A stretch of 64,000 bases of DNA from an uncultured Bacteroides sp. GTDB taxonomy: Bacteria; Bacteroidota; Bacteroidia; Bacteroidales; GCA-2748055. Of the stretch, positions 10,429 to 27,085 are shown piece by piece. The stretch's first letter is position 1, and each line of letters starts with the position of its first letter. The position numbers and the translations under genes are program-made. The notes beneath the pieces are model-generated. The model made no database searches, was not told the DNA's origin, and saw nothing but the letters and a program-made list of their open reading frames with translations. The stretch covers positions 80-64,079 of the forward strand of contig CAZRZY010000001.1 in assembly GCA_964604655.1 (NCBI GenBank), written 5' to 3'.

Positions 10429-10935
10429 ATGAAAAAAACGGCATTAATCTACAGCTTCAATACCAGGAAAACCGGGAAGATCGCAGAAAAGATCAGGGAC
10501 GAGTTCCATGAAGAGGCGGTGGAGATGGTCAACGCGGAGGACCTGACCGAATCTGTATTTCTATCCTTCGATCAGATGATCCTGGGTGTTCCAACCTGGT
10601 TCGACGGAGAGCTTCCCAATTACTGGGATGAATTTGTGCCGGCGCTGGAGGAGATGGATCTGAAAGAAAAGAAGATCGCTCTTTTTGGACTGGGAGACCA
10701 GAAAGGTTATCCAGAAAACTTTCTCGACGGAGTGGGGATCATGGCGGATCTGCTGGAGAACCGGGGCGCGACACTGGTGGGATTCACCTCCACGGAAGGC
10801 TACGAATATGAAAGTTCCAAAGCAACCAGGGGTGATCAATTTCCGGGGCTGGCTATCGATTATGAGAACCAGGGTTCCATGAATAAGGAGAGGGTAGCCG
10901 GCTGGGTGGAACAGCTGAGAAAAGCATTCGATTGA
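10429..10935 (+). CDS. fldA: Flavodoxin (long-chain)
   Basis: The FMN phosphate-binding loop is ALIYSFNTRKTGKIAE, followed by GVPTWFDGELPNYWDEF and LFGLGDQKGYPENF. Length is 168 aa. Confidence 0.85.
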   Translation: MKKTALIYSFNTRKTGKIAEKIRDEFHEEAVEMVNAEDLTESVFLSFDQMILGVPTWFDGELPNYWDEFVPALEEMDLKEKKIALFGLGDQKGYPENFLDGVGIMADLLENRGATLVGFTSTEGYEYESSKATRGDQFPGLAIDYENQGSMNKERVAGWVEQLRKAFD

Positions 10936-11076
10936 GCAGCCTTTAGGAGTTTTCCTTGGTCCCTGAAGCCCCGATTTGATCCCTCGGAGCGATTATATCA
11001 GATGTTTCGTAGCATATTTTCCGCAGAATTTGCTTTTTTTGTGTCTGGAAGGAGAAACTTCTGAAAACTCACCACT

Positions 11077-12576
11077 ATGGCAAAGGATCGTGTGTACATA
11101 TTTGATACTACCCTGAGGGACGGGGAACAGGTCCCGGGATGCCAGCTGAATACCATTGAGAAAATTGAAGTAGCCAAAGCACTGGAGACTCTGGGAGTGG
11201 ACGTTATTGAGGCAGGTTTCCCCATTTCCAGTCCGGGCGATTTCAATTCCGTGGTGGAAATCAGCAAGGCCGTGACGGAGCCGGTGATATGCGCGCTTAC
11301 CAGGGCCGTCAGGGAAGACATCAAAGTCGCGGCTGAATCACTGGAATTTGCCAAAAAGCCCCGGATCCATACCGGGATCGGGACCTCCTATTTTCATATT
11401 TACCATAAACTGAACAGCACCCCGGAAAAGATCATTGAAAGGGGAGTGGAGGCAGTGAAATATGCCAGGAGCTTCGTGGAAGATGTGGAATTCTATGCCG
11501 AAGACGCGGGCCGCACTGACAACAAGTTTCTCGCAAAGGTAATCGAGGCAATGATCGATGCCGGTGCCACCGTGGTTAACATACCCGATACTACCGGATA
11601 CACCCTTCCGGAAGAGTACGGAAAAAAAATCAAATACCTGATGGATCATGTGCCCAACATCGACAGGGCCGTTATATCCACTCATTGCCACAATGATCTG
11701 GGGATGGCTACGGCAAATACGATGAGCGGCGTGATCAACGGAGCCAGGCAGGTGGAGGTCACCGTGAACGGTATCGGAGAGCGGGCTGGAAACACCTCCC
11801 TGGAGGAGGTGGCGATGATTATAAAAAGCCGCAAGCACCTGAATCTGACCACCAACATCAATCCCCGGAGGATCTACAGAACCAGTCGCCTGGTCTCCAC
11901 GCTCATGCGGATGCCTGTGCAGCCTAACAAGGCCATAGTGGGAAGAAACGCATTTGCCCACTCCTCGGGCATCCACCAGGATGGTGTTCTGAAAAGAAGG
12001 GAGAACTACGAGATCATCAATCCCAAAACCGTGGGGATCAATGAATCCTCCATCCTGCTCACTGCCAGGAGCGGACGGGCGGCACTGAAGCATCGTCTGG
12101 AGAAACTTGGATACAAGTTTACCAAGGATGCCCTGAATTCCATTTATGAGGAGTTTGTGAAACTTGCCGATTCGAAGAAAGAGATCATCGATGAGGATCT
12201 GAAAGTGCTTGCGGGAGCCAGTGCCAGGGATATCAAAAGAAATCTTCACCTGAACCACCTGCAGGTTCTCTGCGGAAAAGGGACCACCCCGGTAGCTTCC
12301 GTGAACCTGGTATGGGACAATGTCTGCCACACAGCTACTGCTGAGGGAAATGGACCGGTCGACGCTGCCATCAATGCCGTCAAAGAGATCCTGAAAAAGA
12401 AAGTTCGTATCGAAGAGTTCCTGATCCAGGCCATCACCAGAGGAAGCGATGATTTGGGGAAGGTGCATATGCAGGTGGAATATAAGAATGTGGTTTACTA
12501 TGGATTCTCCGCTTCCACCGATATTATCACTGCCTCGGTGGAGGCATTCATCGATGCCATGAGTCAGATAGTATGA
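11077..12576 (+). CDS. leuA: 2-isopropylmalate synthase
   Basis: [15 protein letters not shown] marks the HMGL-like domain, with [15 protein letters not shown]-terminal LeuA dimer/regulatory domain is present. Length is 499 aa. Confidence 0.9.
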
Positions 12577-22941: not shown

Positions 22942-23024
22942 TGTTATGGAATGTGTGGATACAATTGGTGCATTTGGTTTTTTTTTATACTACCTTTGTA
23001 CCGTTAATCATTTTAACTATTACA

Positions 23025-23216
23025 ATGAAAGAAGGTAAAGTAAAATTTTTTAATGAATCCAAAGGGTATGGCTTCATTAAGGACGTAGAGTCCGAAGAAG
23101 AGTATTTCGTACATGTTTCCGGTCTGATCGACAAGGTCAAGGAGGATGATGACGTGACTTTTGAACTCACAGAAGGGCGCAAAGGATTAAATGCAGTGAA
23201 TGTCAAACTGATATAG
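23025..23216 (+). CDS. Cold-shock protein (CspA family)
   Basis: MKEGKVKFFNESKGYGFI is the RNP1 motif and FVHVS is RNP2. Length is 63 aa. The longer track ORF from 22869 is an artefact of upstream read-through. Confidence 0.9.
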   Translation: MKEGKVKFFNESKGYGFIKDVESEEEYFVHVSGLIDKVKEDDDVTFELTEGRKGLNAVNVKLI

Positions 23217-23245
23217 TTGACCAGCTCATTACGTGTTAATCTGTG

Positions 23246-23274
23246 CCCCCCGGATTTTCCGGGGGGTTTTTTTT
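23246..23274 (+). terminator. Rho-independent terminator after csp
   Basis: The stem CCCCCCGG (23246-23253) / CCGGGGGG (23259-23266) is followed by T8. Confidence 0.7.
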
Positions 23275-23317
23275 GCCCTTATTTTTTTTCCGTATACTTT
23301 TAGAAAAATTCTTGGTC

Positions 23318-24154
23318 ATGAACTATAATCGAAGGAAATTCATCGCCGGCTCCGCTGCAGCCGCACTAGGTGTAGCCATGGATCTGAATGCCGGGCCCCG
23401 CCGTCCCGGGCTGTCCACTGTCAGTGGAACAGCACCGGAAATAAATCAACTGCCTTCCCTGGAAGGGAGAAAAATACTCTACACCTACGGAGGATGGGAA
23501 GGCCATGAACCTGAGCAGTCGGTCTCCCTGTTCAAACCATGGATGGAGCAGGAGGGAGCCGCCGTGGAGGTCTTCCCTTCCCTGGATCCATACGCCGATG
23601 AAGCGTATATGAAAGGGGTCGACCTGGTGATCCAGATATTTACCATGGCTCAAATTTCAGGGGAACAGGAGAAAGGGCTGCTCCAGGCCTTACGCAACGG
23701 CACCGGTATCGCCGGATGGCACGGAGGTCTCTGTGACTCATTCAGAAACAATGTGGCTTACCAGTTTATGACCGGGGGGCAATGGGTAGCCCACCCGGGT
23801 GGGGTGATCGATTATAGCGTGCAGCCGGTGGACCAGGAGGATCCTGTCACCAGGGGACTGGAGGAGTTTCATATGCACAGTGAGCAGTACTATATGCACG
23901 TGGATCCCAATATGAAGGTGCTTGCCACTACCACCTTCAGCGATGAGCATGCCAGCTGGATAGACGGGTGCACCATGCCGGTGGTCTGGAAAAAAATGTA
24001 CGGGAAAGGCAGGGTCTTTTACAGCTCACTGGGACATGTGATGAAGGATTTTGAGGTGCCAGAGGCACTGGAAATCATGAAAAGAGGGATCCGGTGGGCC
24101 TCTGCAAGCAAGTATGCACCCCCCGAATCCTGGATCCATCCGGTATATGGATAA
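23318..24154 (+). CDS. ThuA-like (trehalose-utilisation-type) domain protein with Tat signal
   Basis: The start at ATG 23318 gives MNYNRRKFIAGSAAAALGVA, a twin-arginine signal. The body resembles ThuA-family proteins (GGWEGHEP ... GWHGG ... VFYSSLGH). Confidence 0.65.
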   Translation: MNYNRRKFIAGSAAAALGVAMDLNAGPRRPGLSTVSGTAPEINQLPSLEGRKILYTYGGWEGHEPEQSVSLFKPWMEQEGAAVEVFPSLDPYADEAYMKGVDLVIQIFTMAQISGEQEKGLLQALRNGTGIAGWHGGLCDSFRNNVAYQFMTGGQWVAHPGGVIDYSVQPVDQEDPVTRGLEEFHMHSEQYYMHVDPNMKVLATTTFSDEHASWIDGCTMPVVWKKMYGKGRVFYSSLGHVMKDFEVPEALEIMKRGIRWASASKYAPPESWIHPVYG

Positions 24155-24218
24155 AATTGTTTGGAGAGATCGATTTATTTCCTAATTTCGGAGCATCTGT
24201 TGTATAACATAATTTGAC

Positions 24219-24305
24219 ATGAACTCATCACACCGTAACAGAATCTGGCGATGGCGCTGGTGGCATTCACGGGAAGTTGCTTCGCTGGCTGTGATGAATA
24301 TGTAA
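24219..24305 (+). CDS. Trp-rich leader peptide (28 aa) of a transcription attenuator
   Basis: The peptide MNSSHRNRIWRWRWWHSREVASLAVMNM has four TGG codons within 6 codons (24246-24263). It sits directly upstream of a strong terminator and a Trp-synthesis gene. Confidence 0.6.
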   Translation: MNSSHRNRIWRWRWWHSREVASLAVMNM

Positions 24306-24330
24306 ATTGATAAAATCATCATGATTGATG

Positions 24331-24365
24331 CGGGGCAGGTCCAATGACACTGCCCCGTTTTTTTT
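24331..24365 (+). terminator. Attenuator terminator of the trp leader
   Basis: The stem CGGGGCAG (24331-24338) / CTGCCCCG (24350-24357) is followed by T8 (24358-24365). It ends only 19 nt before the trpB2 ATG. Confidence 0.7.
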
Positions 24366-24384
24366 AATCCATAAAACCAAAGCA

Positions 24385-25761
24385 ATGAGCAAACTGAAGA
24401 AGATTACTCTGGAAGAGCATGAAATGCCCCGCCAGTGGTATAACCTGGCAGCAGACCTCCCCGGGGCAATGAATCCTCCCCTGGGTCCGGACGGGAAGCC
24501 GATCGGTCCGGAAGCACTGGCCCCCGTGTTTCCTATGAACCTGATCGAGCAGGAGGTGAGCATGGAGCGATGGATCGATATCCCTGAAAAGGTCATGGAA
24601 CTGCTCAGCATCTGGCGACCTGCTCCGCTGGTCAGGGCCTATGCGCTGGAAGAAGTACTGGGGACTCCTGCAAGGATCTATTACAAGAATGAAAGCCTGT
24701 CACCCGCCGGCAGCCACAAACCCAATACCGCTATACCGCAGGCTTACTACAACCGGGAATTCGGGATACGGAAACTGACCACCGAGACCGGTGCCGGTCA
24801 GTGGGGTAGTGCGCTCTCCTTCGCATGCTCTTTGCTTGGAATGGAGTGTAAAGTATTCATGGTCCGGGTCAGCTTCGACCAGAAACCGTTCCGAAAGCTG
24901 ATGATGCAGGCCTGGGGAGGAAAATGCGTGGCAAGTCCCAGCCTGGAGACGCAGGCCGGAAGGGCAGTTTTGGAAAAGGATCCTGACACTCCTGGCAGTC
25001 TGGGTATCGCGATCAGTGAGGCAGTGGAGGCTGCAGTGACCGATGAGACCGGTCAGACGCGATACTCTCTGGGAAGTGTGCTGAACCATGTGATGCTTCA
25101 CCAGACCATCATTGGCCTGGAGGCCAAGAAACAGCTGGAAAAGATCCAGGAAAGGACCCCGGATGTGGTGATCGGTTGTGCCGGAGGGGGAAGCAATTTT
25201 GCCGGACTGAGCTTCCCGTTCATGCTCGATAAGATCCATGGTGCAGAGATCGATATCATCCCGGTGGAACCGGCCAGCTGCCCGACGCTTACCAAAGCAC
25301 CCTTTGTTTATGACCACGGAGACCTGGCCAGGATGACACCCTTGCTGGCCATGAATTCACTGGGTCATGAATTTATTCCTCCCCCCATTCATGCGGGTGG
25401 ACTGAGGTATCACGGTATCGCTCCCATGATCAGTCATGCCGTCAACCACGGTCTCGCCAGGCCGGAGTCGATCCAGCAGCTGGAATGCTACCATGCTGGA
25501 GTCACCTTTGCCCGGTCCGAAGGGATCATTCCGGCGCCTGAAACCACTCACGCCATCGCTTCGGCCATCCGGGAAGCCAATAAGGCTAAAGAGGAGGGGA
25601 AGGAGAAGGTGATCCTTTTCAATTTCAGCGGGCACGGATTAATGGACCTGGTGGGCTATGATAAATATCTGACTGGCCAGCTCACCGATCACGAGTTGTC
25701 CGATGAAGACTTTGCCAGGTTTACGGAAATCCTCAAGGACCATCCGGTGCCAACTATATAA
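24385..25761 (+). CDS. trpB2: TrpB-like PLP-dependent enzyme (tryptophan synthase beta, TrpB2 class)
   Basis: The start at ATG 24385 gives [26 protein letters not shown], a TrpB2-type N-terminal extension. The PLP lysine region is [13 protein letters not shown], followed by [12 protein letters not shown]. There is no trpA neighbour. Confidence 0.85.
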
Positions 25762-26173
25762 GTTTGGCTTTCAGCTTAACAGGAGTGGGGGAGACCAGCC
25801 TTGAAACAGGACACTTTTCCTTGGAAGCAGCGGTAAGTTCGTTGAATTTATCCTCTGAAAGTCCTTCGCATTCCACCTCACACTCCAGTTCTATGGAGGT
25901 AATAACCGGACCGGTGTCATCGCTTCCCAGGTGAACGTTGGCATCGGTCTTAACCGATTCCGGTACCAGGTTCTCCTCACTGATCAGAGCGGAGAGGAAC
26001 ATGGAGAAGCACCCGGACAATGCTGCTCCGATCAACTCCTCCGGATTGGTACCTTTGCCTTCCTGAAACCGGGATGCAAAGGTAAAAGGCCCTTCATAAT
26101 CACTGAATTTCATGGTCCCTTTGCCCTGCTTGAGGGTTCCGGACCAGATAGCACTTGCGTTTCTTGTAGACAT
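25754..26173 (-). CDS. OsmC family peroxiredoxin
   Basis: The start at the internal ATG gives [19 protein letters not shown]. The conserved Cys motifs are AALSGCFSM and KEKCPVS. Length is 139 aa. Confidence 0.85.
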
Positions 26174-26317: not shown

Positions 26318-27085
26318 ATGAACCCATATATCTACCTTTCGGCAACCCCGGAGTCGTTGATTGCTTCTCATCTGCCACCCTTTGAATTCGGGAACTACCT
26401 GGCCGTAGGAACCAAAAAACGCACCCGTGGCCAGGCCATCTATTTCGATGTGGATCCTGATAAGGTCAGCACCCTTCCCAAAGAATACATTAAAAGGAAG
26501 CTGGTTCCCTATGAAAGCGGCGAACCGAAACGCTCCGTCTATCTCTCCATTTACCGTTCCCTGGAGCAGACCCCTCTGGATGCGCTGAAGAGTCTCTACC
26601 TGGTTACCGACGACGGAAAAGTACTGCGACTTGAAGGCACCACATGGGAACCGGATGAAGAGACCCTGATTTACCTGTACCAGCAATTTATCCCCATATC
26701 CACCCGTGTGGCCAGCAAGCTTACTCCACCGGAATTCATTGGATTTCTCACCGATCCGGAAAAACCGGTATTTGCCCCCAGAATTTTCATGGCCGACCTG
26801 AAACTGAACAAACTGGCCAGGCACCCCGATGCACCCATTCATGACCTTCCATACCCCAACCCCGATCATCTGAGGGACTGCCTCACCAGGCTGATGGCCT
26901 CCGAAGCGCGGCTGACCAAAACGGTGATCAGGCAATTCAAATCCGAATTGTCGTACAGAACGCTAAAGAAAGGATTCTACGTGGGTGACCAGGAAGGGTA
27001 TAAATATTATCCGATGCCATCCACCAAGGAGCTGGAGAGCACCCATTACTCCTGGTGGCGTTCGGCACTCACCCAGGGATTCTAG
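26318..27085 (+). CDS. Hypothetical protein (255 aa), no recognisable domain
   Basis: It is a clean ORF with coding-like composition and no signal peptide. I recognised no motifs. Confidence 0.5.
   Translation: MNPYIYLSATPESLIASHLPPFEFGNYLAVGTKKRTRGQAIYFDVDPDKVSTLPKEYIKRKLVPYESGEPKRSVYLSIYRSLEQTPLDALKSLYLVTDDGKVLRLEGTTWEPDEETLIYLYQQFIPISTRVASKLTPPEFIGFLTDPEKPVFAPRIFMADLKLNKLARHPDAPIHDLPYPNPDHLRDCLTRLMASEARLTKTVIRQFKSELSYRTLKKGFYVGDQEGYKYYPMPSTKELESTHYSWWRSALTQGF

Follow-up and report, generated by a model that had tools for sequence, protein, structure and literature searches.

Why should a gene for a TrpB2-class enzyme that stands apart from all other trp genes be preceded by a short open reading frame (ORF) crowded with tryptophan codons? 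This question is raised by a 64-kb stretch of DNA from an uncultured Bacteroides species (contig CAZRZY010000001.1, assembly GCA_964604655.1; the whole stretch is called the window here), in which a trpB2 gene at 24385–25761 (+ strand) is preceded by a 28-codon leader ORF at 24219–24305 (+ strand). The role of TrpB2 enzymes encoded outside the trp operon has been debated for two decades, with indole salvage, O-phosphoserine-dependent synthesis and some other function as the candidates. Stand-alone TrpB2 enzymes of the trpB2_o class, such as that of T. maritima, are encoded outside the trp operon, bind indole tightly and were proposed to salvage it (Merkl 2007, PMC1854888), and TrpB2 is also called indole-scavenging in a Geobacter genome paper. 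As cited in PMC11085991, the T. kodakarensis TrpB2 acts in both Trp synthesis and indole salvage, and the TrpB2 homologue of B. thetaiotaomicron, BT_RS23500, rescues an E. coli ΔtrpA strain via cross-fed indole (PMC11535334).

A first-pass annotation of the window had proposed that the leader controls trpB2 by ribosome-mediated attenuation. The analysis reported here supports this proposal, through the geometry of an antiterminator and through conservation of the leader in more than 30 genomes. We put the probability at roughly 0.85 that the leader is a ribosome-mediated Trp attenuator, which would turn on the stand-alone trpB2 when charged tRNA-Trp is scarce.

Results

Leader ORF, promoter and terminator

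The leader ORF runs from ATG to TAA and reads MNSSHRNRIWRWRWWHSREVASLAVMNM. Its regulatory Trp codon block (24246–24263, + strand), TGG CGA TGG CGC TGG TGG, encodes W-R-W-R-W-W and places TGG at codons 10, 12, 14 and 15 (24246, 24252, 24258 and 24261), and these TGG codons are nearly or fully invariant in our alignments A1 and A2. Direct reading thus confirmed the ORF as it had first been described, with four TGG in six codons. No other short ORF in the six frames of the window has four Trp in six codons, and among 790 control windows of 330 nt from related loci a short ORF with at least three Trp in seven codons occurred in 1.5%; this uniqueness and the low control rate argue that the leader ORF did not arise by chance. 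Nine codons precede the first Trp codon in 19 of 31 loci, and the N-terminal part of the leader is variable (59% column identity).

A candidate Bacteroidetes-type promoter is located 5' of the leader at 24160–24190 (+ strand), with a −33 element TTTG at 24160–24163, a 19-nt spacer and a −7 box TAATTTCG at 24183–24190. The box matches TAnnTTTG, which we take to be the −7 consensus of Bacteroides, at five of six positions, and the candidate promoter would put the transcription start about 20 nt 5' of the leader ATG. A box of the TAnnTT(C/T)G type is present 5' of the leader start in all 31 loci, mostly 16–21 nt before the start, and is often accompanied by TTG or TTTG 19 nt further 5'; matches of at least 5/6 to the −7 consensus also occur in 34% of background windows.

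An intrinsic terminator (24330–24365, + strand; helix 3:4) follows the leader ORF. It consists of a stem of 11–12 bp with one bulged A, a CAAU loop and a U-run, and reads CGGGGCAGGUC-CAAU-GAC(A)CUGCCCCG at 24331–24357 with U8 at 24358–24365. It begins 25 nt past the leader stop codon, and its U-run ends 19 nt 5' of the ATG at 24385. The terminator noticed in the first-pass annotation, an 8-bp stem with T8 about 25 nt after the leader and 19 nt before the ATG, is therefore real as a sequence element, and its eight G/C-rich pairs are extended by three more pairs past the bulged A. A simple terminator scan of the window did not call the hairpin at 24331–24357, but only because that scan limited the loop to 8 nt and disallowed a bulge. 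In relatives, the terminator is kept at about 40 nt 5' of the TrpB2 start.

Three mutually exclusive helices

Folding of the RNA from past the Trp codons to the terminator loop revealed an antiterminator (24277–24338, + strand; helix 2:3), which the first-pass annotation had not yet located, in the right geometry. Its outer helix pairs UUGCUUCGC (24277–24285) with GCGGGGCAG (24330–24338), the latter being the 5' arm of the terminator, and its inner helix pairs GUGAUGA (24291–24297) with UCAUCAU (24316–24322). Because the leader stop codon (24303–24305) lies inside the antiterminator loop, a ribosome that has moved past the Trp codons must disrupt the antiterminator. The 5' strand of the antiterminator starts 16 nt from the first base of the last Trp codon, and this distance is the same in the main group of relatives and in a divergent subgroup (L017–L022), although their sequences differ. 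Given the generally accepted footprint of a ribosome, the strand lies just past the leading edge of one stalled at the Trp codons.

A further hairpin, helix 1:2 (24247–24286, + strand), pairs the Trp-codon region 24247–24258 with 24272–24286 and sequesters the 5' strand of the antiterminator, as a default structure for RNA that is free of ribosomes. The three helices are mutually exclusive, with energies of −13.2 (1:2, the weakest), −18.1 (2:3) and −21.2 kcal/mol (3:4). The leader therefore combines the features of a Trp-type attenuator, namely clustered Trp codons, an intrinsic terminator, an exclusive antiterminator and a suitable stalling geometry (the last with a footprint size taken from general knowledge).

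Most main-group leaders also have a fifth, isolated TGG (..ASW..) within the 5' strand of the antiterminator (A2 columns 43–45; L002–L016, L021 and L030). In the window (24285–24290) and in L001 this codon is replaced by CTG (Leu), and the helix is compensated by C-G for U-A or U-G.

From these elements the following sequence of events can be proposed, with transcription starting about 20 nt 5' of the leader ORF. When Trp is plentiful, the ribosome would clear the four Trp codons and cover 24277–24297 on its way to the stop codon at 24303. Because the covered segment could not pair with the newly made 24316–24338, the terminator (24330–24357 plus U8) would form and transcription would end 19 nt before trpB2. 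When Trp-tRNA is scarce, the ribosome would stall at the Trp codons with its leading edge at about 24276, leaving 24277–24285 free to pair with 24330–24338; the terminator would then be blocked and the polymerase would enter trpB2. If no ribosome is on the leader, the Trp-codon region would pair with 24272–24286 as helix 1:2, and the terminator would form again.

Conservation of the leader upstream of TrpB2

A scan of one genome per species yielded 80 TrpB2 loci (relatives are given as L-numbered loci), comprising metagenome-assembled genomes of Bacteroidales at 94–74% identity and members of Desulfobacterota, Spirochaetota, Planctomycetota and others at about 72%. Trp-rich short ORFs are found 5' of TrpB2 in most of the Bacteroidales loci, and a leader with a terminator occurs at near-constant spacing 5' of TrpB2 in the window and in more than 30 other loci. 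The absence of the leader from relatives, which the first-pass annotation had named as grounds for abandoning attenuation, is thus not what is seen: leader, terminator and spacing are kept in more than 30 genomes. When any start codon was allowed, 22 of 46 Bacteroidota loci had at least three Trp in seven codons (background 1.5%), and 12 more had two Trp (background 14%). In the main group, 39–45 nt separate the last Trp codon from the stop codon, about 25 nt the stop codon from the terminator, and about 40 nt the terminator from TrpB2.

The leader peptides fall into several types. Those of the main group read ..W(R/C)W(R/L/H/P)WW(H/N/Y).. with the tail ..ASWAM.GL, those of L017–L022 read ..IWRWRW(R/Q)WH.., and L025 and L032 have ..WIWRWRW.. 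and ..RRWRWR.., respectively; several more distant loci have two-Trp leaders such as ..KWCW.., ..EWNWR.. and ..NWLWR... In close relatives the order ThuA-leader-TrpB2-OsmC is preserved, and the leader also stays with TrpB2 amid wholly different neighbours (L009, L017–L022, L025, L028, L035–L044 and L065). Ten same-strand neighbours in these relatives were tested, and none is a trp gene.

Outside Bacteroidota, leaders with a run of Trp codons and a terminator are found 5' of TrpB2 in L055 (MTRRSWWWWWQTP), L074 (..LWWGWW..) and L076 (..FWWWR..). The sequences of these leaders are unrelated, which suggests that they arose independently. One of these loci (L076:2695-2836) belongs to a cultured organism, Desulfatibacillum alkenivorans DSM 16219. 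Its candidate leader, MGNAMKYTGFWWWRSLLSR, about 165 nt 5' of TrpB2, is followed by a hairpin and T7; the simple terminator finder did not call this hairpin, and the covariance model described below gave a weak score of 16 bits. This strain is a cultured candidate that is potentially tractable for testing the prediction.

A covariance model, R1, was built from the 17 main-group sequences of alignment A2 and searched against 643 kb of sequence. It recovered the held-out loci L010, L106, L107, L114, L133, L137 and L150 at 90–113 bits and matched the divergent L017–L022, L025 and L032 at 22–35 bits. All matches to members stand directly 5' of TrpB2, and the window contains one match. The only moderate match elsewhere (L058:5392-5509) proved to be an ordinary bidirectional terminator and was rejected.

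Metagenomes were scanned with the pattern TGGCGNTGGNNNTGGTGGN{10,20}TGCTTCG, tailored to the main group. Among the matches listed, most were chance matches in GC-rich or Gly-rich coding sequence, but at least eight were genuine leaders, and all six of those with enough downstream DNA were followed by TrpB2 at +148 to +162. A further ten short W-rich candidates were examined and discarded. No main-group leader preceded any other gene among the matches listed, a negative result that is weak because the pattern was tailored to this group.

Structural support among relatives

In A2, the pairings were compared with controls in which the 3' partner was slid. The terminator helix was paired in 89.8% of cells (34–52% when slid), with three pairs changed on both sides; the antiterminator helix was paired in 95.3% (33–65% when slid), with two compensatory pairs (A-U / C-G / U-G and U-A / C-G / U-G); and helix 1:2 was paired in 89.7% (32–57% when slid). 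The covariation score of the antiterminator was matched by 8 of 500 shuffles. Because the A2 sequences are closely related, these pairing figures are supportive, not conclusive. Across 33 loci, antiterminator folds averaged −15.2 kcal/mol compared with −10.6 kcal/mol for dinucleotide shuffles, and 14 of the 33 reached p≤0.05.

A stronger argument than covariation is that the subfamilies reach the same architecture from different sequences. In L017–L022 the antiterminator is formed by a different 10-bp pairing, CCCGAUGAUC:GAUCGUCGGG, in which CCCGAUGAUC holds the leader stop codon; its energy is −17 to −25 kcal/mol, whereas shuffles give about −10 kcal/mol (each of the six loci has p≤0.02). In L025/L032 and L028/L036, yet other segments are used, and their partner is the inner portion of the terminator in the same locus.

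The trpB2 gene, its start codon and its surroundings

The trpB2 gene is monocistronic and encodes a TrpB-like pyridoxal phosphate (PLP) enzyme of 458 amino acids. Judged by profile scores, the protein is of the TrpB2 class: it scored 702 bits against NF009057 (cutoff 366) and 627.9 bits against TIGR01415 (cutoff 518.85), compared with only 160.8 bits against the TrpB1 model TIGR00263 (cutoff 392.45). The closest solved structures are TrpB2 chains (6HUL/4QYS/6HTE, 384–408 bits), whereas TrpB1 chains score about 125 bits.

The start codon had also been in question, as an ORF call beginning at 24325 would bury the terminator inside the gene, and the first-pass annotation had preferred 24385. This choice was borne out by three observations: position 4 of the NCBIfam profile aligns to residue 5 of the protein starting at 24385, 80 homologues align from residues 1–6 of that protein, and the region from the terminator to the ATG differs among relatives by indels whose lengths are not multiples of three. 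The TTG start at 24325 is, on this sequence evidence, an ORF-calling artefact.

The view that trpB2 stands alone also held. Its neighbours encode a ThuA-like protein (23315–24154, +), a convergent OsmC, a cold-shock protein, TrhA, a TolB-like protein and a 255-amino-acid protein. No trp gene was found among these six and ten further ORFs across 11–35 kb, that is, among 16 neighbours, and tblastn with TrpB2 detected no TrpB1 paralog in the window. The stop region of trpB2 overlaps the convergent gene for an OsmC-family peroxiredoxin (25754–26173, −) by 8 nt (25754–25761), and no terminator was detected between the two. The 255-amino-acid ORF (26318–27085) has no Pfam or NCBIfam match and is syntenic near TrpB2/OsmC in L004, L011 and L012, with 69–76% identity.

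A strong terminator (GCCCCCCGGATTTTCCGGGGGGT plus a T-run) is located at 23245–23280, after the cold-shock-protein gene (about 23022–23216) and before the ThuA-like gene. Its position just 5' of the latter suggests that the ThuA-like gene probably has its own promoter, and the GTG start of the ORF at 23243, which buries this terminator, is likely another ORF-start artefact.

In L017–L022, the leader-TrpB2 unit has a same-strand neighbour that encodes a group II PLP-dependent decarboxylase (PF00282, about 475 amino acids); this gene lies directly 3' in L017 (4631-6061, +) and upstream in L019 (639-2057, +). A 474-amino-acid ORF in the same position in L020 (2478-3902, +) is, by its position, probably also a decarboxylase. 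No NCBIfam equivalog cutoff was reached by the PF00282 decarboxylase; a route from indole through Trp to an amine is conceivable in this subgroup.

Elsewhere in the window, a leader rich in Leu codons was considered for LeuA (2-isopropylmalate synthase, starting at 11077; region 10429–12573) and was rejected. The gap 5' of LeuA holds a flavodoxin-like ORF (10429–10935), and neither a Leu-rich leader nor a terminator was found between this ORF and LeuA, so that leader-peptide attenuation is not evident there.

Discussion

Several observations weigh against attenuation by a translating ribosome. In minimum free energy folding, masking a ribosome footprint of 28 nt over each Trp codon in turn left the terminator in place every time. 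Because equilibrium folding always favours the terminator, the switch must be kinetic, as in the E. coli trp operon, a type of switch that such folding is unable to reveal, and kinetic switching is assumed in the scheme proposed above. Covariation in the main group is modest, with few compensatory pairs among closely related sequences. Helix 1:2 shows no covariation in A2, a result that is uninformative because the bases are fixed by the TGG codons. In addition, the share of the terminator 5' arm that pairs upstream was similar in real and shuffled sequences (0.60 compared with 0.54), so that only the energies separated them. Such a leader is missing from about half of the TrpB2 loci in Bacteroidota and from most of those in other phyla. 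Finally, one main-group leader (L010:2820-2870) has TTG as its first Trp codon and TAG as its fourth. The peptide of L010 is thereby shortened to MSDCTNTDSLRWRW, and the remaining RNA is intact (90 bits with R1); the attenuator of this locus may be decaying or may have been altered, or the assembly may be wrong here.

Among the alternatives, the first is compatible with attenuation and adds to it: the terminated leader RNA, the 28-amino-acid peptide or both might also act in trans, as described for rnTrpL/peTrpL of Sinorhizobium (PMC6614838 and PMC7298713). Under Trp-replete conditions the terminated RNA, about 165 nt long, would build up, and the synonymous GCA/GCU/GCG codons before the conserved AUG in the tail give a weak hint of constraint on the peptide. 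However, nothing here points to any target, and the subfamilies share little peptide sequence beyond the Trp block. We regard such an additional function as very unlikely.

The leader peptide contains Trp, and it could in principle act as a TnaC-like arrest peptide that senses free Trp and induces trpB2 when Trp is high, or the switch could be mainly translational. Within the main group the C-terminal half of the peptide (..ASWAM.GL) is conserved, which may hint at a role of the peptide itself. However, the codons of this part form the 5' strand of the antiterminator and are conserved at their third positions as well, as expected for constraint on the RNA, and L017–L022 do not have the tail. 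TnaC is characterized by one conserved Trp residue, by an Asp and a Pro ahead of the stop codon, and by Rho-dependent termination. None of these hallmarks is seen in the leader sequence, whereas an intrinsic terminator that overlaps an antiterminator fits classical attenuation. Moreover, the start region of trpB2 is not covered by the terminator, and induction by high Trp of an enzyme that forms Trp makes scant physiological sense. Control of this kind therefore appears very unlikely.

A simpler explanation would dispense with regulation: the hairpin and U8 could be the terminator of the upstream ThuA-like gene, or bidirectional, with the Trp-rich ORF a product of chance and the trpB2 promoter elsewhere. 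No other terminator separates the ThuA-like gene from trpB2, which is transcribed from the same strand, and the L058 match demonstrates that plain terminators can weakly match the leader model. However, the hairpin lies 177 nt past the ThuA stop codon, yet only 19 nt before trpB2, and a promoter-like box is located between ThuA and the leader. In addition, the leader unit follows TrpB2 into loci with an unrelated or opposite-strand upstream gene (L002, L003, L009, L017–L022, L025, L028, L036 and L044), and the invariance of the TGG codons, together with the uniqueness of four Trp in six codons in the window, is not what chance would leave. We consider this explanation highly improbable. Nor is it at all probable that a trans-acting factor (T-box/tRNA, a TRAP-like or another RNA-binding protein) controls termination instead of the ribosome: a terminator/antiterminator pair alone does not reveal what flips the switch, but searches of the window and 20 relatives gave no match to the T-box or any other Rfam family, 24195–24365 contains no visible array of (G/U)AG repeats, and conservation is highest in a cluster of in-frame TGG codons that lies at a fixed distance of 16 nt from the antiterminator strand and nine codons after the start codon.

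Ribosome-mediated attenuation thus remains the reading that we prefer. As its mechanism is textbook knowledge, the switch itself is unsurprising, and its value lies in what the attenuator says about the gene that it controls. A conserved Trp-codon attenuator is an organism-independent sign that cells want TrpB2 when charged tRNA-Trp is low. It speaks for a role in supplying Trp, for example by scavenging indole, and is in line with the rescue of the E. coli trpA mutant by the Bacteroides TrpB2. TrpB2 would then belong to the Trp-starvation response and, because the enzyme makes Trp from free indole, indole salvage would be induced by Trp starvation. We would give even odds to the broader claim that an uncatalogued leader family is dedicated to stand-alone trpB2, is widespread in Bacteroidales, has apparently independent W-run counterparts in Desulfobacterota-type genomes and provides the first regulatory evidence placing TrpB2 from outside the operon in a tryptophan-starvation regulon. 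If this broader claim is true, anaerobic communities rich in indole would induce indole salvage in response to starvation, and trpB2 would be regulated apart from the canonical trp operon, by a different leader. The practical yield is an RNA family model for the annotation of a leader that Rfam misses, and the corrected gene start at 24385 instead of 24325.

In the searchable literature we found no account of a Trp leader that precedes a stand-alone TrpB2 gene; Trp attenuators of other genes are compared below. The Bacteroid-trp leader motif RF01692 was described in Bacteroidetes by Weinberg et al. 2010 (PMC2864571), and the first-pass annotation had likened the window leader to this class. 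The likeness holds in kind: both occur in the same phylum with the same presumed mechanism, and the descriptive definition of Bacteroid-trp, which asks for a short ORF with at least two conserved UGG and for a hairpin 5' of a Trp-synthesis gene in Bacteroidetes, applies to the window leader. It does not extend to membership of RF01692. The cmscan search suggested in the first-pass annotation gave no match to RF01692 at the gathering threshold in the 64-kb window or in 20 relatives, nor at E≤10 in 24100–24450, and the same searches returned no Trp_leader and no T-box but only sub-threshold terminator look-alikes. The seed leaders of RF01692 read ..UGGUGGUGG.. (YWWW), as in ..NTYWWWRP.. of B. 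thetaiotaomicron, and their hairpin is 'loosely conserved', both unlike the window leader. Furthermore, RF01692 precedes the trp operon, whereas the window leader precedes a lone TrpB2 (the 'trpB' of the seed may be of either class).

The actinobacterial Trp attenuators predicted by comparative genomics (Seliverstov et al. 2005, PMC1262725) resemble the window leader in having leader peptides with two to three UGG, a terminator/antiterminator pair and also targets outside the operon, such as trpS2. However, they belong to another phylum and have other sequences, and their 'trpB2A' is a second copy of the trpBA operon and not a member of the TrpB2 class.

The closest parallel in design is E. 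coli trpL (Trp_leader, RF00513), with which the window leader shares a short ORF with clustered Trp codons, overlapping 1:2, 2:3 and 3:4 helices followed by a U-tract, the same order of energies (−13, −18 and −21 kcal/mol here) and read-through on stalling. There is no similarity to RF00513 in sequence or by covariance model. The window leader has four Trp codons (W-R-W-R-W-W) in a 28-codon peptide, whereas trpL has two adjacent ones, and its stop codon lies in the antiterminator loop, whereas that of trpL lies between segments 1 and 2. Its host is a member of Bacteroidota without Shine-Dalgarno-type initiation, and its target is a single trpB2 gene and not a biosynthetic operon. Our verdict, on the sequences compared, is that the leader represents a new family by sequence, although the type of switch is very well known.

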